Source: an uncultured Gemmatimonadales bacterium (GTDB lineage Bacteria > Gemmatimonadota > Gemmatimonadetes > Gemmatimonadales > GWC2-71-9). Taken from it: a stretch of 64,000 bases of DNA. Position 1 is the stretch's first letter. Each line of letters opens with the position of its first letter. The notes below the pieces were generated by a model. That model saw nothing but the letters and a program-made list of their open reading frames with translations. It did not search any database and was not told the DNA's origin. The position numbers were made by a program, and so were the translations under genes. Positions 43,803-60,030 of the stretch are shown one piece after another. The stretch covers positions 160,001-224,000 of the forward strand of contig CAWGED010000008.1 in assembly GCA_963821525.1 (NCBI GenBank), given 5' to 3'.

Positions 43803-44161
43803 ATGGCGACGAAAGAACGCACTTACAACGACGCGAGATAGCGGAGAAGCTGAAGGATCTTCCCGGCTGGTATCTGGAAGAGGGCTGGATCCGGCGGCAG
43901 TACAAGACCGATGGCTGGCTTACCACGCTGGCGTTGGTCAACACGATTGGGTTTCTCGCCGAGGCGGCGTATCACCATCCGGATCTCACCGTGACGTGGG
44001 CCAAGGTGTGGGTGAAGCTGCAGAACCATGCGGCCGGGGGCATCACCGACAAGGATTTCGAGCTGGCGCGAAAGATCGAAGACGTGGTGTTGTGGAAGCC
44101 GACTGGTGGCGCGCTCGAGGGGACCCCAAACAAGTGGGTACGGGCGGGGGATCCCAAATAG
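43803..44161 (+). CDS. Pterin-4a-carbinolamine dehydratase (5' frameshift ~43833)
   Basis: LPGWYLEEGWIRR, AEAAYHHPDL, HAAGGITDKDFELA; AGGAG RBS. Confidence 0.88.
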
Positions 44162-44243
44162 GCGGACAGGACGGACTCGGCGGAACAGGGCGGTCAACTC
44201 CAACGCCACGTCCGCCCTGACCGCCCCGACCGCCATCCGTCGC

Positions 44244-45660
44244 ATGCCTGGCAACCATCGCAAGATCCTCTTCGTCACCGGCAAGCTCGCCGAACCAGCC
44301 CTCCGGCGAGTGCTGGAGGAGATGCAGCCCGAGTTCGCCTGGCAGGTGGCTGTCCTCCGGATCACCGTCGCCGCACTCATGACCACCGCCTGGATCGCCC
44401 GATTCCTCTCCGTGCCGGAGGGGACAGAGCTGGTGCTGATCCCGGGACTCTGTGAGGGCGACACCGCACTCATCAGCGATAAGGTTGGAGTGGAAGTCGA
44501 GAAGGGACCCAAAGACCTGCGCGAAATTCCCCAGTACTTCGGCCGGGCCGCGCTCGCGGTGGAATACGGCAGTTACGACATCGAAATCCTGGCAGAGATC
44601 AACAACGCTCCGCGCCTGAGCCGTGAGGCTCTATTCAAGGAAGCCGACTACTACCACCGCTCAGGGGCGGACGTCATCGACATCGGCTGTACTCCGGGAC
44701 TTGCATTCCCGTCTCTTGAACAGGTAGTGCGGGATCTCAGATCCGCGGGCCGGCGGGTAAGCATCGATTCCTTCGACGCCGACGAAATTCGGAGGGCAGT
44801 AGGCGCCGGCGCCGAGCTGGTGCTGAGTGTCAACGGGTCCAACCGGGAAGAAGTAGTGAACGACCTGCGCGGAACCGGCGCCAAGGTCGTCGCGATTCCC
44901 GACTTCGGAGCTGGATTGGAGACCCTCGAGCCGACACTCAACGCGCTGGAAAAGGCGGGTGTCTCCTTTCTCATCGATCCGGTCATCGAACCGATCGGGT
45001 TCAGCTTCATGGCCTCGCTCGAACGCTATGCCGAGATTCACCGCCGGTATCCCGAAGTCCCCCAGATGATGGGGATCGGCAATCTGACCGAGCTGACCAG
45101 CGCCGATACGACAGGGGTGAACGCGGTCCTCATCGCGATCTGTCAGGAGGTAGGTGTCAAGGCGATTCTCACCACCGAGGTAATACCGTGGGCCCGGGGA
45201 GTGGTGCGAGAGATCGACGTGGCCCGCCGGCTCATGTACCACGCGGTCACCCGGAAGACTCTTCCTAAAGGCGTGGACGACAGGCTCCTGACGGTGAAGG
45301 ATCCGAAGATCCTCACCTACGATGAAGCCGAGCTGCGCCAGCTGCAGTCGCAGGTGACCGACCCCAACTTCCGCATCTTCGCCGACCGGGAGACCATCAC
45401 CGTCTTCAACGACGAGTTGTTCATCCGCGGCACCGACATCCAGGAGATCTTCGATCAACTCGGCGTCGAGGATGCCAGTCACGCGTTCTACCTCGGCAAG
45501 GAGCTGATGAAGGCGAAGCTCGCCATCACCCTGGGGAAGACATACCGGCAGGAGGGACAGCTCGAGTGGGGTTATCTCACGCCGCCGGATGAGCCGAAGC
45601 GGGAGCATGTGAAGATCGCGAAGAGAGGCGGGAAAGGCGGGAAGGGACGGCGAGGCATGA
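44244..45660 (+). CDS. Dihydropteroate-synthase-like protein of H4MPT clusters (Orf20-like, DUF6513)
   Basis: LFVTGKLAE, VAALMT, GPKDLR, GADVIDIGC, DPVIEPIGF, GNLTELT, HAFYLGKEL..A. Confidence 0.88.
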
Positions 45661-47093
45661 CGCTGCCATTGGTCGAAGAGCTGGTGCCCTGCCCCGATCC
45701 GGTCGCAACCTGCGCCCGGCTGCTGGGTCAGCCCCACCTGCTTTTCCTCGACAGCGCAGCCGACCCGGAACGCCTGGGGCGGCATTCCTACCTCACCGCC
45801 GCACCGGCGATGATGCTGCGAGGCAAGGGTCGCGGGCCGGGCCCGAATGCACTGGAGCAGGCGCGCGCGCTGCTGGCTCAGCATCAGGCGGAACCGGTCC
45901 CCGAGCTTCCGCCCTTTCAGGGTGGGCTGGCGGGCTACATCGGCTACGACTTCGGCGCGGTGCTGGAACGGCTCCCCGCTCCACGGTTCGACGACCTTGC
46001 CCTGCCCGATGCGGCACTTGGTCTCTACGACTGGGTCATCGCGTGGGATCACCGGCAGGGACGGGCGTGGATCGTCTCGACCGGCATGCCCGGAGAAGGT
46101 GCAGCACGCCCGCGACGCGCGGCGGAACGGCTCGCCTGGGTGAAGCGCCAACTCGCGGGACCGGCAGCGGGAGCCGGAGGCAGAGCCCTCCACTCCCACC
46201 GCATCGCTGCTCCCGCGCCCTCCTATCCGGTCGCCGGATTCGAGCATGCCGAACAGATCGGACTCCGCTCCTCCTTCACTCACCGCGGGTATCTCGACGC
46301 GGTGAGCAGAGTTCGGGACTACATCATCGCGGGCGACATCTTCCAGGCGAACCTTTCGCAGCGCCTCGAGGTGCCGCTCGAAGAAGACCCCTGGCACCTC
46401 TACCGACGACTTCGGGAAGTGAACCCCGCTCCCTTCGCCGCGTATCTGGAATTCGACGGTGTCGCGGTGGCCAGCGCGTCACCCGAGAGATTTCTCCGAT
46501 TGGATGAGGCCGGACAAGTGGAGACGCGTCCGATCAAGGGCACTCGGCCGAGGGGTCTCTCGCCGCTGCACGACGCCGCCCTGTCCCAATCGCTCGCCGA
46601 CAGCGAAAAGGACAGGGCGGAAAACCTGATGATCGTGGACCTGCTGCGGAACGACCTCTCGCGAACCTGCCTGCCGGGTTCGGTCCGGGTTCCCGAGCTG
46701 TTCGCGCTGGAGCACTATCCCACGGTGCACCATCTGGTCTCGACCGTTACCGGCCAGATGCGGCCGGGCACCGGTGCCACCGACCTCCTCACAGCGGCAT
46801 TTCCGGGCGGGTCCATCACCGGAGCGCCCAAGGTGCGGGCGATGGAGATCATTGCCGAATTGGAGCCGTCTCGCCGAGGCGTCTACTGCGGCTCTATCGG
46901 ATACATGAGCATCACAGGCGCCATGGATACCAGCATCGTGATCCGGACGCTGGTGGCGCTGGGCGGCCGAGCCTATTTCTCGGTCGGCGGAGGGATCGTG
47001 GCCGATTCCGACCCGGAGCAGGAATACCGGGAAACGCTCGACAAGGGACGTGCCCTGGTGAACGCGCTCGCCGGCGGAGTCACCACCCCATGA
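45657..47093 (+). CDS. pabB: Aminodeoxychorismate synthase component I
   Basis: PPFQGG..GY..YD, GDIFQANLS, SASPERF, RPIKGT, KDRAENLMIVDL, PGGSITGAPK. Confidence 0.92.
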   Translation: MTLPLVEELVPCPDPVATCARLLGQPHLLFLDSAADPERLGRHSYLTAAPAMMLRGKGRGPGPNALEQARALLAQHQAEPVPELPPFQGGLAGYIGYDFGAVLERLPAPRFDDLALPDAALGLYDWVIAWDHRQGRAWIVSTGMPGEGAARPRRAAERLAWVKRQLAGPAAGAGGRALHSHRIAAPAPSYPVAGFEHAEQIGLRSSFTHRGYLDAVSRVRDYIIAGDIFQANLSQRLEVPLEEDPWHLYRRLREVNPAPFAAYLEFDGVAVASASPERFLRLDEAGQVETRPIKGTRPRGLSPLHDAALSQSLADSEKDRAENLMIVDLLRNDLSRTCLPGSVRVPELFALEHYPTVHHLVSTVTGQMRPGTGATDLLTAAFPGGSITGAPKVRAMEIIAELEPSRRGVYCGSIGYMSITGAMDTSIVIRTLVALGGRAYFSVGGGIVADSDPEQEYRETLDKGRALVNALAGGVTTP

Positions 47094-47758
47094 TCCTGCT
47101 GATCGACAACTACGACAGCTTCGTGTACAACCTGGCTCGCTATGTGGCGGAGTTGGGCCAGGAGCCGGTCGTCCGCCGGAACGATTCGATCACCCTCGAT
47201 GAGATTCCCGCCCTGCAGCCGAGCCACATCATCATCAGCCCGGGGCCCTGCTCACCTGTTGAAGCAGGAATCTCCACCGAGCTGATCCAGCGGTTCGGCG
47301 GCTCGATTCCGATCCTCGGCGTGTGCCTCGGCCACCAGTGCATCGGTGCGGCCTACGGCGGAGAGATTGTACGCGCCAAACGGCCAATGCACGGCAAGAC
47401 CTCTCGAATCCATCACCAGGGTGAAGGGATTTTCGCCGGCCTGCCGAGCCCATTCCTCGCGACCCGTTATCACTCCCTGGTGATCGCTCCAGAATCGGTG
47501 CCTCCGGAGCTTCGGGTCATGGCGACAGCGGAAGACGGGGAGATCATGGCCGTCGCCCATGCCACTCACCCTGTTGTCGGTGTACAGTTCCATCCCGAGT
47601 CGGTACTCACCGAACACGGGTACCGCATGCTGGATCAGTTCCTGACCGGGGGCCGGGGAGTGAATGTGCCGGAACGGGCCGACCGGGCGTCCGTGCCCAA
47701 GGCAGCAGTGCCGGCAGATCTGGCCAGCGCACCTCCGCCCGCCGATCTGGTTCGATAG
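47090..47758 (+). CDS. pabA: Aminodeoxychorismate/anthranilate synthase glutaminase component II
   Basis: IDNYDSF, SPGPC, GVCLGHQ, RYHSL, QFHPES. Confidence 0.93.
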   Translation: MILLIDNYDSFVYNLARYVAELGQEPVVRRNDSITLDEIPALQPSHIIISPGPCSPVEAGISTELIQRFGGSIPILGVCLGHQCIGAAYGGEIVRAKRPMHGKTSRIHHQGEGIFAGLPSPFLATRYHSLVIAPESVPPELRVMATAEDGEIMAVAHATHPVVGVQFHPESVLTEHGYRMLDQFLTGGRGVNVPERADRASVPKAAVPADLASAPPPADLVR

Positions 47759-47783
47759 TCCTTCCCTCAAGGAGTTGCAACGC

Positions 47784-49635
47784 ATGTCGAAGTGTTTTGC
47801 CCTGGTCGCGGCGGTCTGCTGCGCCCAACTGCCACTCGCCGCTCAAACCCCCGATACCCTGCGGTACCAGCTCACCTCGGTGATGGTGCCGATGCGGGAC
47901 GGGGTGCGTCTCAATACCCACATCTACGCTCCCCAGGGTCAGAAGGACCCGCTGCCCTTCGTGATGGTGCGAACGCCCTATGGAATCGAAGCCGATTCAA
48001 TGGCGCTCAAGGGCCCGTACAAGACCATGGCGGATCAGGGCTACATCTTCGTGTCTCAGGACATACGAGGCCGCTACGCTTCGGAAGGCCAATTCCTGAT
48101 GAACCGGCCCTTGCACGACCCGGCCGATTCCACGGGAGTGGATGAGAGTACCGATACCTACGACACCGTCGACTGGCTATTGAAGAATGTGCCCGAACAA
48201 CAGCGGAGCCGTAGGAGTACTGGGAATCTCCTACCCCGGTTGGCTGGCCGCGATGGCAGGGATCAATCCCCATCCTGCCGTGAAGGCGGTCTCGCCTCAG
48301 GCACCGATGACCGACACCTGGATGGGAGACGATTTCTTTCACCAGGGCGCGTTCCGCCAGTCGTACGGTTTCGAGTACGCTGCAGATCTGGAGCTTTCGA
48401 AGGATGAGTCGGTTCCACTCCCGATCGACCGCTACGACACCTACGACTTCTATCTCGCTCACAGCCCACTCTCAAAGCTGACCGACCTGCTTGCAGGGAA
48501 AGTCCAGACCTGGACCAACTTCGTCGCCCATCCCAACTACGACGCCTTCTGGAAGGCGCGTTCGCTGCCAACCTATTTGACCCGGCTGAGCGTACCTACA
48601 CTCACGGTCGGCGGGTGGTGGGACCAGGAAGACTTCTACGGCGCGATCAAGACCTACGCCACGCTCGAGCCGCTCGACAGCGCTGGCAGAAACTCCGTCG
48701 TGCTCGGGCCCTGGAATCACGGCAGCTGGAGCCGCGGCAAGGGAGACAAGCTGGGCAACATCTCGTTCGGGAGTAACACGAGCGAGTTCTACCGGGACTC
48801 GGTACAGGCGCCCTGGTTCGCCTACTGGCTCAAGGGCAAAGGCCAAGGCCGTTTCCCCGAGGCGCTGGTGTTCGAGTCGGGATCCAACAAGTGGAGAACC
48901 TTCGATACCTGGCCGCCCAAGTCGCAGACGCTGGAGAAGCGCCTCTACTTCCGGGAGAACGGTCTGCTGTCATTCGCGCCGCCGCCCCTCCCCGACGGCA
49001 AGCAGCCAGCCTCGAGCCTGATGGACAGCTATGTCTCCGACCCGGCTCATCCGGTGCCGTATCGGCGGCGGCCAGTTCAGCAGACCTACGATCAACGGGG
49101 CTCAAATTGGCGGGTGTGGCTCACAGAGGACCAGCGCTTCGTGCAGGGCCGGCCCGACGTGCTCACCTGGCAGACTCCGCCGCTGACCGAGGATGTAGCC
49201 ATCGCCGGAAACATCACCGGGGACCTGTTCGCTTCAACAACGGGGAGTGATGCGGACTGGGTGGTGAAGCTGATCGACGTTTATCCCGACAGCGTGCCCG
49301 ACGATTGGCCCATGGGGGGATATCAGTTCATGGTGGCGAGCGACATCCTCCGTGGCCGCTTCCGGCAGGGATTCGAGAAGCCGGTCGCTATCGCGCCGAA
49401 CAAGGTGGCGGAGTACACGGTGGATCTGCACCAGCAGAGCTATCGCTTCCTCAAGGGGCACCGCATCATGGTCCAGGTCCAGAGCACCTGGTTCCCGCTG
49501 TACGATCGGAATCCGCAGACCTTCGTACCCAACATCTTCCTGGCGAAGCCGGAGGATTTTAAGGCTCAGACGCACCGGATCTATCGGAGTGCGAAGTATT
49601 CGTCGAATGTGACCGTGTCGGTATTGAAGGAATAG
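47784..49635 (+). CDS. Secreted CocE/NonD (S15, alpha-amino acid ester hydrolase-like) hydrolase (frameshift ~48200)
   Basis: Signal peptide; PMRDGVRL, RTPY, QDIRGR..SEG, GISYPG, GPWNHG, QSTWFPLYDRNPQ. Confidence 0.9.
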
Positions 49636-49725: not shown

Positions 49726-50295
49726 ATGATCATCGAATCCATCCTCACAACCATGGACCCCTCGGGCGTCGTCAACTACGCGCCCATGGGTGTCGAGTGG
49801 GGGGAGGAGACGATCGTGATCAAGCCTTTCCTCGAGACCACAACCTTTCGGAACCTGAAGGCGACTGGCGTCGCCGTGGTGAATCTCACCGATGACGTCA
49901 TGCTCTTCGCCCGCGGGGCGACCGAAAACGTGACCTTGCCCTCGGGACCGGCGGCTGTAGTGAAGGGAGTAGTGATCGACGCCGCCTGCTCCTGGCGCGA
50001 GGTCGAGGTCGTCTCCATCGACGACACGCCTCCCCGCTCCCGAATCGTGACCCGGGTCGTCCACCAGGGATTCCGGCGGGAGTTCCTCGGCTTCAACCGG
50101 GCCCGCCATGCGGTGCTGGAGGCGGCCATTCTCGCCACCCGAACCCACCTGATTCCAGCGGAGGAAATTCGGCGCGAATACGAGCGGCTTCAGATCATCG
50201 TGGACAAGACCGCGGGTCCTCGCGAGCAAGAGGCGATGTCGTTCCTCAAGTCTGTCGTTGCCACCCGGCTCGGCGCCGTCGCATCAACCGGATGA
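49726..50295 (+). CDS. DUF447 family protein (H4MPT-cluster associated)
   Basis: IIESILTT, APMG, KPFLETTTFRNL, GFNRARHAVLEAAILATR. Confidence 0.88.
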   Translation: MIIESILTTMDPSGVVNYAPMGVEWGEETIVIKPFLETTTFRNLKATGVAVVNLTDDVMLFARGATENVTLPSGPAAVVKGVVIDAACSWREVEVVSIDDTPPRSRIVTRVVHQGFRREFLGFNRARHAVLEAAILATRTHLIPAEEIRREYERLQIIVDKTAGPREQEAMSFLKSVVATRLGAVASTG

Positions 50296-51281
50296 GTGCG
50301 CTCGAGCAGCTCCCAACCCGGATCACGGTCGAGGCCCCGGCGCGCCTCCACTTCGGAGTTCTGGATCTGCGGGGTCACCTGGGCCGCAGATTCGGGGGGA
50401 TCGGCGCCGCGATTCCGGTCCCTGCGGTGCGGCTCGAGGTAACTCGGAACGAGTCCATTACCGCCGAGGGGCCGGACGCTGGACGGGCGCTGGAGTTCGC
50501 CCGCCGCTTTCTCGCCAGCTACCGGCTCAAGGGCGGCGCGCACCTTTGCGTCGCGCAAACCATTCCGCCTCACGTCGGACTCGGCTCCGGCACTCAGCTC
50601 GCGTTGGCTGTGGGCCGCGCCCTCGCCGAGTTACACGGCATTCAGGTCGAACCACCGGCGCTGGCCCGTGCCGTAGGGAGAGGTGTCCGCTCGGCGATCG
50701 GCACCTGGGTCTTCGCGCTGGGTGGCTTCGTTCTCGAAGGAGGCCGGAGGCCGGGAAGTGACGGCGTCGCCCCACTCATCTCGAGGCTCCCGATGCCGTC
50801 CGCCTGGCAGGCGGTGATCGCGATCCCGCAAGGAACACCCGGTTTGAGCGGAGAGACCGAGGCGGAGGCCTTCGCGAAGTTGCCGCCCCCATCGGAGCAG
50901 GAGGTCGAGCGAGTGGCGCATCTGGTCCTGATGCAGCTGCTGCCGGCGCTCGCGGAAGCCGATCTGGCAGACTTCGGCGCCGCGCTTTCGGAGATCCAGC
51001 GGATCACCGGCGCCTGGTTCTCTGGAGCGCAGGGGGGAGCGTTTGCCGCGGGGGCGAGCGCGCAGCTGGTTCGGCTCCTGGCGGAATTCGGGGCCCAAGG
51101 TGTGGGGCAAAGCTCTTGGGGCCCAACGGTTTACGGACTTACGCCAGACACAGATTCGGCCCGCGATCTGGCCAGCCGGGTGCGGGCAAGACTAGGAGAT
51201 TCCGGGGTGGTTTATCAGACCGGATTCGCCCAGCGCGGTGCGCTGGTGCATACCGATTGGACAGCCGTGGGACGTGATTGA
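50292..51281 (+). CDS. mptG: Beta-ribofuranosylaminobenzene 5'-phosphate synthase (GHMP fold)
   Basis: APARLHFG, FGGIG, HVGLGSGTQL, RSAIG..F..GGF, GQSSWGPT. Confidence 0.93.
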   Translation: MSALEQLPTRITVEAPARLHFGVLDLRGHLGRRFGGIGAAIPVPAVRLEVTRNESITAEGPDAGRALEFARRFLASYRLKGGAHLCVAQTIPPHVGLGSGTQLALAVGRALAELHGIQVEPPALARAVGRGVRSAIGTWVFALGGFVLEGGRRPGSDGVAPLISRLPMPSAWQAVIAIPQGTPGLSGETEAEAFAKLPPPSEQEVERVAHLVLMQLLPALAEADLADFGAALSEIQRITGAWFSGAQGGAFAAGASAQLVRLLAEFGAQGVGQSSWGPTVYGLTPDTDSARDLASRVRARLGDSGVVYQTGFAQRGALVHTDWTAVGRD

Positions 51282-51306
51282 CAGGTTTTAAGACGGCTGA
51301 TAACAT
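51278..51306 (+). promoter_or_regulatory. sigma70-type promoter upstream of the xoxF leader
   Basis: TTGACA (51278-51283, overlapping the mptG stop) - 17 nt - TAACAT (51301-51306). Confidence 0.75.
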
Positions 51307-51839
51307 AGTGCCTCTCTGATCGGGCGGGTTCCTTGGCCGGGAACCTTCCCCGAGGCTGCGGGTATCGAAGTCGTGTACCCCAAGTCTCTACAGGGATCGC
51401 GGTAACCTCCCTGGCCTTGGTTTCACACCGACATTTTCTAGCCTATGTCTCGACTCCTTGGTTCAATGGGAGATCGAAGCCATTCAGCGGCGCTCTGAGG
51501 CACTTCATGGGCGTTGGGTCTGGTATCTGCAATCGCGATTATTCGAATCGCTCGGCCCGTCCACATCGGATGGGAATGAGCGACGCTAACTACGCCGGTC
51601 TCCCCAATAATTGCGGCGGGTATACGGGATGGTGGTGGGGGGCATCGGAGACAGACATCGCAACGGTCGTTCGGCCATAGCAAGACAGGTCGGACGGCCG
51701 TTGGTGTTTGTAGGGAAGTTGTTTCCTGGCACTGAGGACGGACGGAGCGGGTGCGCTCACGCCGGAGCGGACCACCGAAAGTCTTTGGTGCTGAAGTAGC
51801 GCAGCAGTAGGGCAGTCACCCTTCATCATGAGGTCTGTT
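51307..51839 (+). ncRNA. Candidate large structured leader RNA of xoxF (no family recognised)
   Basis: More than 10 hand-found helices, including an 8-bp long-range stem (51307-14/51497-504) and a 16-bp stem with three G-U pairs (51661-76/51688-703); no convincing long CDS. Confidence 0.5.
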
Positions 51840-53683
51840 ATGAACCGTATTACCCGCAGGATGTTGTCTGGCGGGCTAGTCGCGGGGTTGACGATCCTCG
51901 CGGCATCGGCTCACGCCCAGGCACGTTCGGGGAAGTGGACCCTGAATGCGCCGGAGGGCGAGTGGTGGATGACCGGTCGCGATTACAGTCTCCAGCGGTT
52001 CAGCCCGCTGGCGCAGATCAACACCTCCAACGTGGCCAATCTGAAGGCCGCCTGGTCGTTCTCGACCGGCACGCTGCGCGGACATGAGGGCAACCCCCTC
52101 GTCGTCGGCAACGTGATGTACGTTCACACGTCCTTCCCGAACAATGTGTACGCGCTCGACCTGTCCAAGGAAGGCGCGCCGCAGATCTGGAAGTACGCGC
52201 CCAGTCAGTCGCCGGACGCGATTCCAATCGCCTGTTGCGACCTCGTGAACCGCGGCACTGCGTATCACCCGAGCGGCAAGCTCTACATCGAGCTGCTGCA
52301 GGGTGAGCTCGCGGCGATCGATGCCAAGTCCGGCAAGGAGCTGTGGAAGGCCAAGCACCCGGATCACTCCGGCGCGGGCGTCGAGGCGAACGGCTACAAG
52401 CAGGGCGCCACGATGACCAACGCCCCGATCGTGATCGGCGACGTCGTCATCGCCGGCATCTCGGGTGGTGAGTTCGGAGTCCGCGGCCGCGTCTCGGCGT
52501 TCGACGCGAACACGGGCAAGCACATCTGGACCGCGTACAGCACCGGCCCGGACAGCGAAACCATGATCGAGGGCGATGCCAACGCGAACTACGCGTCCCA
52601 CAAGGGGAAGGACCTCGGGGTCTCGACCTGGCAGGGCGACGAGTGGAAGCGGGGCGGCGGCACCACCTGGGGCTGGTACAGCTACGATCCCGAGCTGAAC
52701 CTGTTCTACTACAACAGCGGCAACCCCGGGACCTGGAACCCCGATCAGCGGCCGGGCGACAACAAGTGGTCCATGACCATGTGGGCTCGTAATCCGCAGA
52801 CCGGTAAGGCCAAGTGGGCGTACCAGATGACGCCGCACGACGAGTGGGACTATGACGGCATCAACGAGGACGTGCTGTTCGAGAAGGGCGGCCAGAAGCT
52901 GCTGGCCCACTTCGACCGCAACGGCATCGGCTACACCGTCGACCGGACCAACGGCAAAGTGATCGTCGCCAACGCATTCGGCCCGATCAACTGGGCAAAG
53001 AACGGCGGGCACCGGCACCCCGGTTGAGGGTGTGGTGACCACGGGCGTCCCGGTCAAGGATCCCAAGTTCGGCACCAGCTCCAAGAAGAACGGCGAGGGA
53101 ATCTGCCCCGCCGCCATCGGGTTCAAGGATCAGCAGCCCGTCGGCGTACTCGCCGATCACGGGCCTGTTCTACGTCCCCGCGAACCACATCTGCATGGAC
53201 TATGAGGGCGTGGAAGTGAAGTACACCGCCGGTCAGCCGTACGTCGGCGCGATCGTGCGGATGTTCCCGGGCCCCGGCGGCAATCGCGGCCGGTTCATCG
53301 CCTGGGATCCCATGACCGGTAAGCAGGTGTGGGAGATCAAGGAGAACCTCGCGGCGTACGGCGGCGCGCTCACCACGGCCGGCGGCATCGTGTTCTACGG
53401 CACGATGGAAGGCTGGCTCAAGGCCGTTGATCAGAAGACGGGCAAGGTGCTGTGGAAGTTCAAGACCCCGTCGGGCATCATCGGCAACCCGATGACCTAC
53501 AAGGCCCCGGATGGCAAGCAGTACGTCGCCGTTCTGTCGGGCATTGGTGGCTGGGCCGGTATCGGCGTGGCCGCGGGCATCGGCGCAGAAGATCCCACCG
53601 CCGGTCTCGGCGCGCTGGGCGCGTTTGGTGACGCGGGTCAGTTCTCCACCCAGGGTGGCGTGCTGACTGTCTTCGGGCTGTAA
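51840..53683 (+). CDS. xoxF: Lanthanide-dependent PQQ methanol dehydrogenase (frameshifts ~53000 and ~53138)
   Basis: Signal peptide; FSTGTLRGHEG, ACCDLVNRG, GGEFGVRG, GGGTTWGW, HDEWDYDGINE (D-x-D lanthanide signature), ICPAAIGFKDQQP, GIGGWAG. Confidence 0.93.
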
Positions 53684-53741
53684 TTCGCTGCACACGGCCG
53701 TCCGGGGGCTTGCTCCCGGGCGGCTGTCCCGCTTAGTCGTT

Positions 53742-53803
53742 CAGACGGCGCCGGACACCTCCGCGGGCAAGACACTCCGCCCTGCAGTGTCCGGCGCCGT
53801 TTG
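53742..53803 (+). other. Intercistronic 17-bp stem-loop between xoxF and xoxJ
   Basis: cagacggcgccggacac / gtgtccggcgccgtttg (one G-U pair). Confidence 0.7.
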
Positions 53804-53868
53804 TCCGGTGCGGTGGCGGTTCGCCGCCAGCTCAAATCATGCAAGTGTGTGCCCAGGCGGAATATCCG

Positions 53869-54730
53869 ATGCGTTTATCAGTGCTGCGCCATGCCGCTCT
53901 CGCTGTCGCCCTGGCCGGGGGAATCGCCCTGCCCGCCCAGGCCCAGCGACCCAGCCCCCTTACCGAAGGGGTGCTACGGGTGTGCGCGGATCCCGACAAC
54001 ATGCCGTTCTCCAACCAGGCGGGAGACGGATTCGAGAACAAGATCGCCGAACTGCTGGCTCAGACCTGGAATTCCAAGCTCGAATACATCTGGTGGCCGG
54101 TGCGTCGCGGCTTCTTCAGCCCGGGGCCTGAACGGCCGCTACTGCGACGTGGCCATTACCGCTCCAGCCAAACTCGACATGGCCGGAGTCACCGAACCCT
54201 ACTTCCGGTCGTCCTACGTCATCGTCTATCGCAAGGACAGCGGGCTCGACATCTCGAGCCTGGATGACCCGAAGCTCAAGCAGCTCAAGATCGGCGTGAA
54301 CCTGCTCAATGCGGACGCCGAGAATACTCCGCCCGCGATGGCGCTGAGCTCGCACGGGGTGGTCGGCACTCTGGTCGGATTCGGCACCTTTTACAGCGAA
54401 GGCGGGTTGCGTCCCGAGGACATCATCAATGCGGTGGTCGACAGTACTATCGATGTCGCCATCGTCTGGGGTCCGGTGGCGGGCTACTTCGCCAAGACCG
54501 CGCGGGCTCCGCTGGTGCTGCGCCCGCTCCCCGACGATTCATTGAGCGGGATCCCCTTCTCCTTCAGCCTGGGCCTGGCAACCCGGCGGCGGGAGACGGT
54601 GATGCGGGACAGCCTGCAGAAGTTCATCGACGCCAAGCGTCCCGAGCTTCAGAAGATTCTGGAACAGTTCAACGTGCCGATGTTGCCGCTCACCCCCGAT
54701 TCGGCGAAACCGGGCACAACCGGTCAATGA
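53869..54730 (+). CDS. xoxJ: MxaJ/XoxJ-type periplasmic binding protein (frameshift ~54120)
   Basis: LRVCADPDNMPFSN...GFENKIAE, TEPYFRSSY, SLDDPKL, DVAIVWGPVAGY. Confidence 0.9.
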
Positions 54731-55215
54731 CTTCGACGCCAAGTGGTGGCATTCCCTCGCCTTCGAAAGGATCGCGCACCCGCATGAGCCGTTCGTTCGT
54801 CAACCCTCGCGCGCTGACCGTCGGCGCGGTGCTCGCCCTGCTGCTCGTCCTCACGGCACCTCTCGCTGCTCAGGTGCATGACGAATACCATCCAGCCCCG
54901 CGTGATACCGTCACCAATGATGTTTACCAGGGATGGAAGCAGTTCGAGTTGAACTGTTCCCGGTGTCACGGCGAGTATGGGGTCGGCACCTCGTTTGCTC
55001 CCTCACTCATCGTGTCGATGAAGGATGACGGAACCATCCCCACCCAGGAATTGTTCATTACCACCGTCTGCGCCGGCCGACCGGACAAGGGAATGCCGTC
55101 CTGGTGCGGGCTGGGCCTGGAAATGGACAAGATCCAGCGGATCTACCTTTATCTGAAGGGGCGAGCGGACGGAAAAATCGGCATAGGACGACCGGCCGTG
55201 AAGGAGAACAGCTAG
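54727..55215 (+). CDS. xoxG: Monoheme cytochrome c, XoxG-like electron acceptor (start may be 54784)
   Basis: Signal peptide; CSRCHG; GRPDKGMPSW; YLKGRADG.IG.GRP; directly follows xoxJ. Confidence 0.8.
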   Translation: MTSTPSGGIPSPSKGSRTRMSRSFVNPRALTVGAVLALLLVLTAPLAAQVHDEYHPAPRDTVTNDVYQGWKQFELNCSRCHGEYGVGTSFAPSLIVSMKDDGTIPTQELFITTVCAGRPDKGMPSWCGLGLEMDKIQRIYLYLKGRADGKIGIGRPAVKENS

Positions 55216-55237: not shown

Positions 55238-56062
55238 ATGTATCCGCGAATGCGCGGCCTTTCCGCCTGGGCGTTCCTGGCGGTGACTTTCCCCCTCGCC
55301 GCGCAAAACCCGCCGGCAGCGGCTCCGGGAGCGCTAACGCGCGAGGCCGTCCAGGAGCGCCTCTCCAAGACCACCGGATCAATCCCCGATCTCTCCGGCG
55401 TCGACCTGAGACGGCTCGACCTGAGTGGATTGGACTTCCGCCAGGCCAACCTGACGAAGGCCAGGCTGGACAGCGCAAACCTTTCCGGCGCCAAGCTCTT
55501 CGCCGTCGATCTCACCGACGCGACCGCCATCGGCGCCGACCTGAGTAAGGCCAATCTCGACGGCTCCACCCTGCGTCGCGCCAACCTGCAGCACGCCAAC
55601 CTGCGGGGTGCGAGCCTCTTTGCGACGATCGTAGAGGCTGCCGACCTGAGTGAGGCGGATCTCAGGGATACGCGTATTATCGGGTACCTGAAGGCGGCCA
55701 AACTGCGGGGTACCAACCTGCAGAACGCAAACATCGGCGCCGATCCGGGCAATCAGTCCATGGGCGTCATGCGGGCCCAGTTCGGAAGCGCGGATCTCTC
55801 TGGTGCCGACTTCACCGGGGCCAATCTCTTCAAGGCCGACTTCGGCTACGCCAAGCTGATCGGTGCCAAGCTGGTCAACGTGGATCTGCGAAACGCGGAA
55901 TTGATCCAGGCCGATCTGACGGAAGCCGACGTCACTGGAGCCAACGTCGCCTCGGCGGACCTCAACGGAACCATATTCACCAAAGCCAAGGGAGTTTCCA
56001 CGCTCAAGGGACTCGACCAGGCACGCAATAAAGACAAGGCGGTTTTCGATGAACGGAACTGA
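55238..56062 (+). CDS. Secreted pentapeptide-repeat protein
   Basis: Signal peptide; many A(D/N)LxG/A repeats. Confidence 0.92.
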   Translation: MYPRMRGLSAWAFLAVTFPLAAQNPPAAAPGALTREAVQERLSKTTGSIPDLSGVDLRRLDLSGLDFRQANLTKARLDSANLSGAKLFAVDLTDATAIGADLSKANLDGSTLRRANLQHANLRGASLFATIVEAADLSEADLRDTRIIGYLKAAKLRGTNLQNANIGADPGNQSMGVMRAQFGSADLSGADFTGANLFKADFGYAKLIGAKLVNVDLRNAELIQADLTEADVTGANVASADLNGTIFTKAKGVSTLKGLDQARNKDKAVFDERN

Positions 56063-57158
56063 CGGGATGCGGCGGGCTCTCATCCTGGGTGCGGTTGCTC
56101 TCCTGGCGGCTGGGTGCGGCCGGCGTGAGGCAGCACCGCCTCAGGCGGGGGGTGCAGGGGGCGGAACGGAAGCGGCCGGGGAATACGTGTATGTCAGCAA
56201 TGAGGATTCCCGAAACATCACGGTGATAGACGCGGCGACCGATAGTGTCGTCAGCACGATCGAAGTAGGTACTCGCCCCCGCGGCGTGAAGGTGAGCCCC
56301 GATGGCCGTACAGTTTACGTGGCGCTGAGCGGATCACCCAAGTGCCCGCCCACCATGCCGGACGAGGAGTGCGAGAAGCTCAAGACCGATCCCTCGAAGG
56401 ACGGAGTCGCAGTGGTCGACGTGGCAACCAGGAAGACGGTGAAGACTCTCCCCGCTGGCAAGGACCCCGAAACATTCGACGTGAGCCCCGACGGAACCCG
56501 GCTCTACGTCTCCAACGAAGACGCCGACTCCGCATCCATTGTTGACCTCCAGAGCGGCAAAGTCATCGCCAACGTGAAGACCGGCCGGGAGCCCGAAGGC
56601 GTCACGTTGTCACCCGACGGCAAGACTGTGTGGGTCACCGGGGAAACCGATCACAACATCACCGGAATCGGCACCCAGTCCGGGCAAGGTGGTGGGAACC
56701 ATCGAGGTTGGCCAGCGGCCGCGCTCCATCCGATTCGTTCAGAATGGGGCCAAGGCATACGTGACCAATGAAGTCGCCGGCACCGTCACCGTCGTCGACA
56801 TGAACGCCAGGAAGACGGTGAAACCATCACCATGCCGGAAGGGCTCCAAGCCCATGGGGCTGGCGGTCGCCCCCGACGGCCAGAAGGTCTACGTCTCGAA
56901 CGGGAGAGGCGGGACACTGTCGGTTCTCGATGTCGCCACCGACTCGATCCTCTCCACCACAAAAGTGGGCACTCGTCCCTGGGGAGTGGGTGTCACGAAG
57001 GACGGGAAGAAGCTCTATACCGCAAACGGCCCCGGCAACGACGTCTCGGTAATCGACGCCTCGACAATGCAGGTCGTCAAGACGATTCCGGCGGCAGCGT
57101 GCCGTGGGGGATTGCGATTGGACCGGCGGTGAGGGGAGAGCCGTTAGCGATAGACTAG
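56049..57158 (+). CDS. YVTN-type beta-propeller lipoprotein (frameshifts)
   Basis: Lipobox LAAGC; repeats YVSNE, SPDG..VYV, YVTNE, YTANG. Confidence 0.88.
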
Positions 57159-57866: not shown

Positions 57867-59911
57867 TCATGGCACCATCACACCCAATTCCTCAAACACG
57901 AAACTCCAGGTATCCACCAGCTCCTCGAGCACCTTGGAAACCGGCTTCCCCGCGCCGTGCCCTGCCTTTTCCTCCAACCGGAGCAGAATGGGTCGCCCTG
58001 AGGAAGACGCAGCCTGCAGCAACGCCGTCATTTTCCGCGCGTGCATCGGATCTACCCGCGTATCGCTCTCGGCCGTGGCAAGCAAGACAGCAGGATACGC
58101 GGTGCCCGGTTCCACTCGGTGGTAGGGCGAGTAGGCCCTCAGCCAGCCGAACTGTTCCGGATCATCGGGGTCGCCATACTCCGGGATCCAGAGCCGCGCA
58201 ATCAGGAACCGGTGATACCGCAACATGTCGAGCAGCGGAACCTGAATGACCACGGCACGGAACAGCTCCGGGCGCTGGGTGAGAGCGGCCCCCATGAGCA
58301 GCCCTCCATTCGACCCGCCGGCAATCGCCAGGCGTTCCGGCTTCGTGTAGCGCTGAGCGATCAGCCATTCGGCAGCGGCGATGAAGTCGTCGAAACTGTT
58401 CTGCTTGCGTGCCAGCATGCCGGCCTGATGCCACGATTCCCCGTATTCCCCGCCCCCTCTCAGGTTTGGCACCGCTACTACCCCGCCGCTTTCTACCCAC
58501 AGCAGCAGTGACCGGGAGAAACCCGGAGTCATGCTGATGTTGAAGCCACCGTAACCGGTCAGATAGGTCGGGTTGTCTCCCGTGAGGCTAAGCCCGTTCC
58601 GGTGCACGAGGAACATGGAGACTCCCGTGCCATCGCGCGAGGGGTAGGTCACCTGGCGTCACCTGGTAGTCCGCCGGATCGAGGTCTGCCTCGACCATTC
58701 GCCAGAGTGAGCGGGCCCCCGAATCCAGGTCCACGCGATAGACACTCGGCGGAACCGTGTATGACGAAAATCCGTAGAACAACTCTTCCCCATCCCACTC
58801 TCCGCCCCAGCCGAACACACTTCCGATTGTGGGCAACTCGAGCGGCCTCGGGTTTTTCCCCTCGAGGTCCGTCACCAGGAGACGAGAGGATGCGCGTTCC
58901 AGATAGCTGAGGGCCAGCGCGTTGCCCAGCACCATCGCGCCGTCCAGCACCGCATCGCTTCTGGTGGGAATCAGCTCTTCCCAGCGGGAGCGGTCCGGCC
59001 GCTCCGGATCGCCGCGGTAGAGCCGGTAGTTGGGAGCATCGAGGTTGGTGCGAACGTAGAGTCGCCCGCGAACGACCTGCCCTTCGAACGATGCGGGCAG
59101 ATTCTCCGCGACGGCGACGAGGGGGCCGCCGCGCTCCAGGTCCTGCAGGAAGAGGTCGGTCTGATCGAAAGTTCGAGCGACGCCGATCAGCAGCCAGCGT
59201 CCCTCGGGCGAGAGGTCAACGCTCGGCCAATGCTCCTTCTGTGACGGCTTGAAGATGAGCCGGTCTCCGGCGGGATCGTCTCCCAGGAGATGCAGGAAGA
59301 CAGCGCGGTGATACTGCTCCTCCCCTTCGGGCACCGAGCCCGGAAACGGGTAACGGGTGTAGTAGAACCCGTTGCCGCCGGGCAGCCATGCGAGGTCCGC
59401 TGCGCGAGTCCCGCTGATCCGATCGGGCTTGACCTCACCGCTATCCACATCGAGGACGTGCAGTACGCTTTCCTCGCTCCCGTTTTCGGAAAGACCATAG
59501 GCCAGGAGCTTTCCGTCCTCGCTCGGGAAATACCAGTCGAGTGCGGTAGTGCCGGCGGCATCCAGCGCATTGGGATCGAGCAGGACGCGGTCGGGGCCCT
59601 CGACTCCGTCCCGAACATACAGGACAGGTTGGTTCTGAGTTCCTTCCCTTCGCTGATAGAAGTAGCGCCCTCGAGCCGGCGTCGGAGCACTCAGCGCACC
59701 GATCTTGAGCAGTTGCTCCAGCCGGGCCCTGATGAAAGGTCTGGCGGGTACGCCGATCGAGGTAGTCGCGGGTGAACCGGTTCTGTTCGCTAGTCCAGGA
59801 CCGGGTCTCGGCGCTCTCGCCGTCCTCCAGCCAGCGATACGGATCGGGAATTCGCTCGCCATGGAGCGTGTCGACGACGCCGTACGTCGGAGAAGGTGGA
59901 GGGGAGGGCAT
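57867..59911 (-). CDS. Prolyl oligopeptidase, S9A (frameshifts)
   Basis: [41 protein letters not shown]. Confidence 0.93.
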
Positions 59912-59922
59912 GGTCTAAACAG

Positions 59923-60030
59923 CGTGAGAAGTGAGAGGTGAGAAGTGAGAGGTAAGAAATAGGGAGTATCAAGGAGTGGTTGAAGCTGTCTGCTATCGCG
60001 CTTTTCCTTCTTACTTCTCACGCTCACTTC
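59923..60030. repeat. Inverted heptamer element (GTGAGAR ... YTCTCAC)
   Basis: gtgagaagtgagaggtgagaagtgagaggtaagaa ... ttcttacttctcacgctcacttc. Confidence 0.82.

Follow-up and report, generated by a model that had tools for sequence, protein, structure and literature searches.

A candidate leader-peptide attenuator in front of xoxF in an uncultured Gemmatimonadales bacterium

Known control of xoxF, the gene of a methanol dehydrogenase that uses pyrroloquinoline quinone (PQQ), runs through two-component systems. The pyrBI operon of E. coli has a leader open reading frame (ORF) that runs into a terminator hairpin, and a closely following ribosome prevents termination. Peptides with RGPP or RAPP arrest the ribosome robustly and RSPP is partly permissive, according to the available part of Fujiwara et al. 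(PMC12992588), and in Bordetella pertussis the upstream open reading frame (uORF) CruR gates a metal-related operon after initiation, the stalled ribosome being the ON state (PMC9426467, available in part). Here we analyse the leader of xoxF in a stretch of 64,000 nucleotides, hereafter the window, from an uncultured Gemmatimonadales bacterium (NCBI GenBank assembly GCA_963821525.1, contig CAWGED010000008.1, positions 160,001 to 224,000 of the forward strand). A previous sequence-only reading of the window had taken this leader for one highly structured, non-coding RNA and a candidate riboswitch.

The Gemmatimonadetes-type XoxF dehydrogenase ranked first in abundance among the proteins of a grassland soil, and methanopterin biosynthesis genes lie directly upstream of xoxF at this locus (PMC5103831, available in part). 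The available parts of that paper and of PMC10875860 describe the locus type, and not the leader, the uORF or regulation. The literature searched held no description of xoxF regulation in these uncultured bacteria; it joined neither arrest peptides to Gemmatimonadota nor uORFs to methanol dehydrogenase, and no description of the xoxF leader appeared in it as judged by titles or abstract starts. The text and 10 supplementary files of PMC12992588 mention no PQQ, methanol or Gemmatimonad, supplementary file 10 and the labels of Figure 4 lying outside that search.

We find that 174 nt of the supposedly non-coding gap make up a conserved reading frame, which is served by a ribosome-binding site of its own. 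On balance we lean towards reading the leader as a leader-peptide (uORF) attenuator of the xoxF operon. Many related leaders carry the arrest motif E-R-[G/S/A]-P-P (ER[GSA]PP); judged from sequence, a form that has a hairpin in place of the motif is what the window's leader adds to them.

The reading frame, the arrest motif and the hairpin

Comparison of orthologous leaders brings out, at the level of sequence, a promoter, a start, an open frame, the arrest motif of relatives, a covarying hairpin, the geometry of stop and hairpin, and the exclusion of motif and hairpin. In the window the leader is made up as follows.

51278..51306, + strand: sigma-70-type promoter, TTGACA-17-TAACAT with an extended TG
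51307..51496, + strand: 5' part of the leader, ~190 nt; its length is kept in the long-leader clade, its sequence and fold are not
51340..51364, + strand: GGAAC-N16-GGTA with fixed spacing, a possible second promoter of the extracytoplasmic function (ECF) type
51497..51500, + strand: Shine-Dalgarno (SD) site GAGG of the uORF, aligned across genera as GAGG-N6-ATG/GTG
51507..51680, + strand: unannotated uORF of 57 codons, ATG at 51507 and TAG at 51678-51680, rich in Trp and Asn, ending Arg-Pro-TAG
51661..51712, + strand: terminator-like 16-bp hairpin (51661-51703), its loop holding the stop of the uORF, and a U-rich tail, -23.7 kcal/mol
51754..51769, + strand: small hairpin with covarying pairs and the loop ACGCCG; in the uORF frame its 3' arm reads Glu-Arg
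51817..51834, + strand: near-invariant element round the xoxF ribosome-binding site (GAGG 51830-51833), with a weak 4-bp stem possible

The near-consensus promoter of the sequence-only reading stands, with one such site found against 0.3 expected and a layout shared by orthologous leaders. TTGACA lies 3' of the upstream gene, for β-ribofuranosylaminobenzene 5'-phosphate (RFA-P) synthase, in 106 leaders, and in 104 of these a hexamer starting with TA follows 17 nt on. The gap of roughly 530 nt is also as described, xoxF starting at 51840, 533 nt past the -10 box. The helix said to close a large RNA domain at the 5' end fares less well: its 3' arm (GAGGCACT) is the SD site of the overlooked small frame.

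Among 76 long Gemmatimonadales xoxF leaders, 70 yielded an equivalent uORF start (57 ATG, 12 GTG and 1 TTG). It lies 209-242 nt past TTGACA in 53 of the 70, and Gly is the second residue in 49. Only three of the 70 frames are shorter than 40 codons, compared with 54% for the two other frames. In the hairpin-bearing clade Trp makes up 6.0% of residues in frame versus 1.8 and 3.8% in the other frames, and Asn 7.2% versus 0.2 and 2.2%; Asn is not raised in the motif-bearing genera (1.8%). Asp plus Glu account for ~5% of residues, and no signal or membrane segment is obvious by eye. The window's uORF has three consecutive Trp codons (51630-51638), 13-15 codons before its last residue. Arg-Pro-stop is found in six of seven members of the genus, encoded within the hairpin arm, and in the sister genus the stop comes ~20 nt earlier after other last residues. 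Cys-x-x-Cys occurs near the N-terminus in five of the seven; it is absent from the window's genome and not kept outside the genus. In genus g18 the uORF stop overlaps the xoxF start codon. Between close pairs of leaders, indels of 1-2 nt are common 5' of the uORF and rare inside it, which we do not count as support. Exact peptides from the window's genome and two congeners (four queries) had no match in a collection of 15 billion proteins, and the window's peptide matched no NCBIfam model.

To place the frame among its relatives, xoxF leaders were gathered from related genomes and metagenomes, and 135 distinct leaders entered the counts of motif and hairpin. They are 300-750 nt long in one clade and ~120-180 nt in others. 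Leader DNA is recognisable within the genus only (4 of 60 other genomes), the other matches beginning at or just before the xoxF ribosome-binding site. On the sense strand 71 of the 135 encode ER[GSA]PP, 66 of them in frame with an SD-led start; the antisense strand has none in 135, and random 550-nt windows gave 13 in 3000. Sixty occurrences are written in 40 different codon strings, with all four Pro codons used at both Pro sites. Short-leader lineages, and a second family as well, have peptides of 9-11 codons to the end of the motif; these are among the shortest peptides of RGPP type, far from any exit-tunnel pulling force. Most of the 9-11-codon ER(G/S)PP peptides (L092-L123, L272-L276) have Cys two residues before the Glu. 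A quick XoxF tree of 121 rows, midpoint-rooted and weak in its deep branches, places the short-leader lineages outside a well-supported long-leader clade. The motif occurs in them and also in genera inside that clade, and it therefore looks ancestral and lost more than once. The window's genus and its sister genus are without it, and no other SD-led RxPP uORF in the window's genome passed the filters. An arrest motif before proteobacterial-type xoxF genes was rejected as chance level, RxPP standing at 13 of 72 against a background of 324 of 1500.

The 16-bp stem with three G-U pairs is present as the sequence-only reading drew it. By pattern, 24 leaders have such a hairpin (13-16 bp, -19 to -30 kcal/mol, interrupted U-rich tail), and none of the 24 also has the arrest motif. 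In an alignment of 22 leaders, 97.2% of the cells of the named structure are paired, and 9 of its 23 pairs show double-sided changes, the long stem contributing 6 of 13 and the small ACGCCG-loop hairpin 3 of 6. No shuffle in 500 reached this level and slid controls stood at 35-41%; the structure itself comes from this alignment, whose members are related, and these figures are to be taken as support and not as a probability. Exchanges of G-U, G-C and A-U among relatives bear out, for the long stem, the suggestion that its G-U pairs point to RNA-level structure, and the broader proposal of RNA-level control of xoxF is supported, as control after initiation. Of 19 uORF stops in the hairpin clade, 10 lie 5-14 nt before the stem, seven inside it, and two frames run through. 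When 51664-51693 is held open in a fold model, the 3' arm of the hairpin is 63% unpaired as against 1%. Base composition differs alongside: the C/G ratio exceeds 1 in g23 and g89 (1.03-1.79), long-leader genera that bear the motif, is 0.48-1.0 in g1 and g13, and in the window's genus is 0.74-0.87, that is, G-rich. C-rich motif frames thus fit Rho, and G-rich hairpin frames fit the hairpin.

Assembled contigs from RNA libraries, which give no start, end, strand or level, cover the leader at 51401-51635 (4 differences) and bridge the hairpin into xoxF twice (51642-52198 and 51634-51982). The hairpin is therefore not an absolute stop. A further contig (51219-51512) spans the promoter and could stem from DNA or from read-through.

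After the xoxF stop a hairpin at 53694..53727 (+) has a 5' arm equal to that of the leader hairpin at 10 of 12 bases; the arm pattern has only seven matches in the genome, two of them flanking xoxF, and the likeness is present in the window's genus and hardly in others. The Glu-Arg read through the small ACGCCG-loop hairpin falls about where relatives encode ERxPP and is, weakly, a possible relic of it. A second ORF through that hairpin was rejected, 31 leaders sharing no start or frame. The pairs of the possible stem at 51817-51834 hardly vary and lend it no covariation support.

The 5' part of the leader and the riboswitch proposal

The proposal of a single structured RNA leader survives in part. 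Its promoter, its gap and its helix arms are real, all 13 arm pairs that we looked up being in place; the leader is not one non-coding RNA. Nor is the whole of it highly structured: of the 13 positions of a sliding 120-nt window, two give z below -4, both of which hold the 16-bp stem, and the remaining 11 range from -1.5 to +0.6. The minimum free energy of the whole region gives z = -3.67 against shuffles, and -1.87 once that stem is removed. Conservation and covariation are found for the hairpin, and the 5' part has no consensus fold (-1.99 kcal/mol and 8 pairs over 25 relatives' leaders). In 13 relatives its fold z runs from -1.9 to +1.5.

Within the window's genus the 5' part has 82% invariant columns. 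In other genera (g23, g89, g18) the first ~200 nt are wholly different, and they are missing from the ~150-nt leaders of other lineages, which argues against a riboswitch-like RNA of 530 nt; one large conserved RNA was likewise rejected, leader DNA being unmatched outside the genus. The 5' domain lacks an aptamer conserved with covarying structure across lineages, as a riboswitch would have. On the side of an expression platform, the covarying terminator-like stem is present and no RNA antiterminator was found. We regard a riboswitch here as improbable. Two of the proposed helices were rejected on the evidence of six close relatives: GCGATT/AATCGC, offered as a switch partner, fails to pair in 11 of 36 cells, GACAT/ATGTC fails in 5 of 30, and TCGCTC/GAGCGA is never broken (5 one-sided changes and 1 two-sided). 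The leader does lie outside known RNA families, the best Rfam match in 50500-52500 having E 5.1, and 20 orthologous loci gave no match at E<=1. A mobile or repeated element was rejected, because a search of the genome for another copy of the leader gave nothing better than E 0.57.

The domain drawn at 51307-51504 has z = -2.64, and -1.08 when begun at 51313, about where transcription should start. The 5' arm of the closing helix lies directly behind the -10 box and is probably only partly transcribed from the xoxF promoter. This helix pairs the bases just past the -10 box with the uORF SD site. Across leaders, the 14 nt past the -10 box pair with their own uORF SD at -9.8 kcal/mol and with those of others at -9.0 (0.75% of 2000 permutations); the advantage is absent within genera (p 0.15) and disappears when the 6 nt next to the -10 box are left out. 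An SD-hiding closing helix may matter only in read-through RNA from upstream.

GGAAC-N16-GGTA occurs in 40 of the 135 leaders and in only one of the 71 that bear the arrest motif. As the mark of an ECF regulon it does not stand out: the genome has 34 sites at N16 and 13-36 at other spacings, and in 21 g13 genomes the counts are like those of a reversed control, except for tandem repeats in two. Dispersed tandem arrays of 7-base units such as GGAACTC/GGTACTC lie on many contigs of G421 and G595 and, in the window's genome, on C1 near 39300 and C12 near 10525. In genus g18 (L061, L063, L064, L065) there is a second promoter-like site, TTGACA-17-TATCCT, shortly upstream of the uORF.

A 49-nt RNA module (L021:759-807 and its orthologues in genera g13, g33 and g8) has covarying stems round a near-invariant A-rich internal loop, is 94.9% paired with double changes in 5 of 11 pairs, and is a candidate protein- or ligand-binding motif. 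It was found in xoxF leaders only, in 6 of 151 genomes, all of them training members; it had no Rfam match and was not detected in the window's genome. On these grounds it was rejected as a widespread riboswitch.

A model of attenuation and its competitors

Under the attenuator reading, the sigma-70 promoter would start transcription and a ribosome would initiate at 51507 about 200 nt later. The last six codons of the uORF and its stop would then occupy the 5' arm and loop of the terminator-like hairpin. A ribosome at, or lingering on, the end of the frame would keep the hairpin open and let RNA polymerase read into xoxF-J-G; with the uORF untranslated or the ribosome gone, the hairpin would form and transcription would stop or pause. 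We infer that the frame is translated, that the hairpin terminates, that ribosomes stall at the peptide's stop and that some ligand may act there. This design may have replaced an older one of the same order, whose uORF closes with the arrest motif ER(G/S)PP and whose long C-rich versions probably shield the RNA from Rho, as CruR does. The output is likely transcriptional, because in the fold model a ribosome at the stop opens the 3' arm of the hairpin and the xoxF SD becomes no freer; a ribosome at the end of the frame would thus mean read-through, the same sign as in CruR and TnaC/SpeFL.

As for the signal, we would guess at PQQ or formaldehyde, cytoplasmic small molecules of the pathway, in preference to the lanthanide ion, because the peptides are rich in Trp and Asn with some Cys, and not in Asp/Glu. 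Trp, Asn, Arg and Cys have a chemistry that might suit PQQ or formaldehyde, which is again a guess. We would go further only speculatively, and hold as rather doubtful the full proposal, namely that Gemmatimonadales control their lanthanide methanol dehydrogenase with a nascent-peptide sensor which responds, inside the ribosome, to PQQ, to formaldehyde or to lanthanide status, and that the window's lineage re-invented it by exchanging an RGPP/Rho device for a new Asn/Trp-rich stop-codon arrest peptide coupled to a hairpin terminator. If true, the peptide would found a new class of arrest peptides, and one-carbon metabolism would have its first ribosome-based switch.

Several observations weigh against the attenuator. 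Some uORF starts were picked by genus-specific patterns or by hand, and in six long leaders none was picked. By the search patterns used, 40 of the 135 leaders have neither motif nor hairpin. The ratio of nonsynonymous to synonymous polymorphism (pN/pS) of the uORF is 0.76 in the genus and 0.47-1.13 over ten sets, its variable sites are spread over the three codon positions as 21/22/26, and 60% of its columns are invariant versus 82% in the flanks; the peptide of the window thus appears to evolve almost neutrally. In the window's genus alone the Trp enrichment is weak (5.0% versus 0.5 and 4.0%). A strict scan for intrinsic terminators called nothing, the U-tract being interrupted. Holding 51664-51693 open leaves the xoxF SD no freer (0.35 versus 0.50), and therefore no translational switch is seen. 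The hairpin clade consists of two sister genera, and the exclusion of motif and hairpin amounts to about one event. Lastly, long stems are found past the end of xoxF too, in 76 of 93 loci, so that a stem in such a position may be no more than an ordinary 3'-end stem, and this is a serious rival account of the leader hairpin.

That last point belongs to a wider alternative, which we consider doubtful, namely that the leader is an unregulated relic. The arrest function of the uORF would have been lost, the hairpin would be a constitutive leaky terminator or an RNase-blocking or processing stem that stabilises xoxF mRNA, and control would have moved to a protein that binds the 5' part or to promoters, the latter being the sigma-70 site and the GGAAC-N16-GGTA element. 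Near-neutral evolution of the peptide, the near absence of that element from motif-bearing leaders, the stems after xoxF and their resemblance to the leader hairpin in the window's genus, and the second sigma-70-like promoter of g18 all suit it. Yet clades without the motif keep the SD, the start and an open frame with frame-specific Asn and Trp enrichment. Moreover, the leader hairpin keeps its sequence and U-rich tail whereas the stems after xoxF vary freely, and the ECF-like element is not enriched genome-wide. That the 5' ~190 nt are instead a ligand- or protein-binding RNA domain controlling the uORF ribosome-binding site, with uORF and hairpin as a relay, we think improbable. The kept length, the invariance within the genus, the slightly better pairing with the own SD and the covarying 49-nt module of g13, g33 and g8 would agree with such a domain; against it, that module is undetected in the window's genome and elsewhere confined to xoxF leaders, the 5' part has neither an Rfam match nor a consensus fold and z values of its relatives lie on both sides of zero, and the SD signal vanishes within genera or with six bases removed.

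Two further accounts keep the frame at the centre. In classical amino-acid attenuation, a pause at the tandem Trp (or Asn) codons under scarce charged tRNA would let the hairpin form and cut xoxF back. The three consecutive Trp codons and an enrichment of Trp in all clades invite the idea, which is nonetheless quite improbable: the downstream genes xoxF-J-G are not amino-acid biosynthetic, blocking 51625-51655 in the fold model leaves the hairpin unchanged and reveals no antiterminator, and the oldest peptides, of 9-11 codons, contain at most one Trp. A trans-acting small protein (e.g. in XoxF maturation) with a terminator of its own is very improbable. It would explain the gene-like layout of SD, start, stop and stem, and the Cys-x-x-Cys in most members of the genus, but lengths range from 9 to 150 codons, no domain is conserved across genera and pN/pS is near 0.7.

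The locus and its comparison with known systems

The genes round the leader are as follows.

50292..51281, + strand: mptG-like RFA-P synthase gene (TIGR00144 above cut-off), final gene of the methanopterin island
51840..53683, + strand: xoxF-type PQQ methanol dehydrogenase (ORF, Pfam and NCBIfam matches)
53801..55215, + strand: xoxJ-like binding protein and xoxG-like cytochrome c (TIGR03871 and TIGR03874, both below cut-off; Pfam)

The stop of the RFA-P synthase gene overlaps the -35 box of the xoxF promoter. XoxF has a D-x-D motif which we take to be the lanthanide signature. In the assembly xoxF appears split by one extra base near 53004-53007 and another near 53137-53141. All four RNA runs gave contigs with one base fewer at both sites and the frames of four congeners are open (628-648 aa), and therefore the insertions are assembly errors and the gene is intact. 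Overlapping ORFs with halves of one Pfam family lie at 47664-49635, 53004-53141, 56049-57132 and 57867-60027, and those outside xoxF probably have the same assembly-indel cause. A 1021-aa ORF (44028-47093) joins DUF6513/pterin-binding domains to anthranilate-synthase/chorismate-binding domains and is a fusion or an artefact. The earlier statement that no two-component regulator stands beside the operon is confirmed: a scan of 27 ORFs from 39.6 to 63.6 kb gave no match to a two-component domain.

PQQ synthesis is encoded in the genome, with pqqC above cut-off and a weak match to pqqA; pqqC has one internal stop in the present assembly. The pqqA-like peptide and pqq operon (C19, near 954.5 kb) lie behind a gene whose end looks, by eye, like a sigma-54-type activator. 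Rho is encoded too, and its RNA-binding domain has two matches above cut-off (C5:108093-108314 and C8:261938-262150).

A leader-peptide switch would differ from the two-component control of xoxF and could be tested without culture. The series from 9-codon RGPP leaders through long RGPP leaders to hairpin leaders without the motif may be a natural experiment in the rebuilding of an attenuator. Pursuing a 530-nt riboswitch would be misdirected effort.

Among described systems, a trpL-type attenuator shares the three Trp codons, but here there is no antiterminator and the downstream genes are xoxF-J-G. As in a pyrBI-type attenuator the uORF runs into the hairpin, although the U-tract of the window is imperfect. 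TnaC has W12 and P24, 12 residues apart, and the Trp residues of the window stand 13-15 residues before the Pro. Like TnaC and SpeFL, which stall at the stop codon once a small molecule is bound (PMC12360218, available in part), the window's leader has a short peptide, presumably cytoplasmic, on whose stop a held ribosome would prevent termination, and in the window's genus it ends Pro-stop with Trp upstream; TnaC/SpeFL block Rho, whereas this leader has a hairpin, and the sister genus does not end in Pro. With CruR the xoxF leaders have in common a uORF before a metal-related operon, control after initiation with a stalled ribosome as the presumed ON state, C-rich RNA in the motif-bearing long leaders, and CXXC in five of seven genus members. 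The window's leader differs in having no RAPP, G-rich RNA with no C>G stretch, a hairpin instead of a rut site, and no CXXC in its own genome; a search of NCBIfam only gave no DUF2946-like match for its uORF. Of the RAPP/RGPP peptides (ApdA, ApdP, ApcA and S. lividans uORFs, as far as PMC12992588 was available), 71 of the 135 xoxF leaders repeat the small uORF, the motif near its end, the variable N-terminus and the position upstream of a regulated gene, although the xoxF peptides have no obvious signal or membrane segment, a frequent but not obligatory trait of that family, and the oldest are only 9-11 codons long. The window's uORF shares with that family its own ribosome-binding site directly upstream of the regulated gene and differs in that its peptide (51507-51680) has no R-[A/G/S]-P-P. 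With the motif missing, the window's leader is not a member of the RAPP/RGPP family, but it most likely works in the manner of a uORF attenuator.

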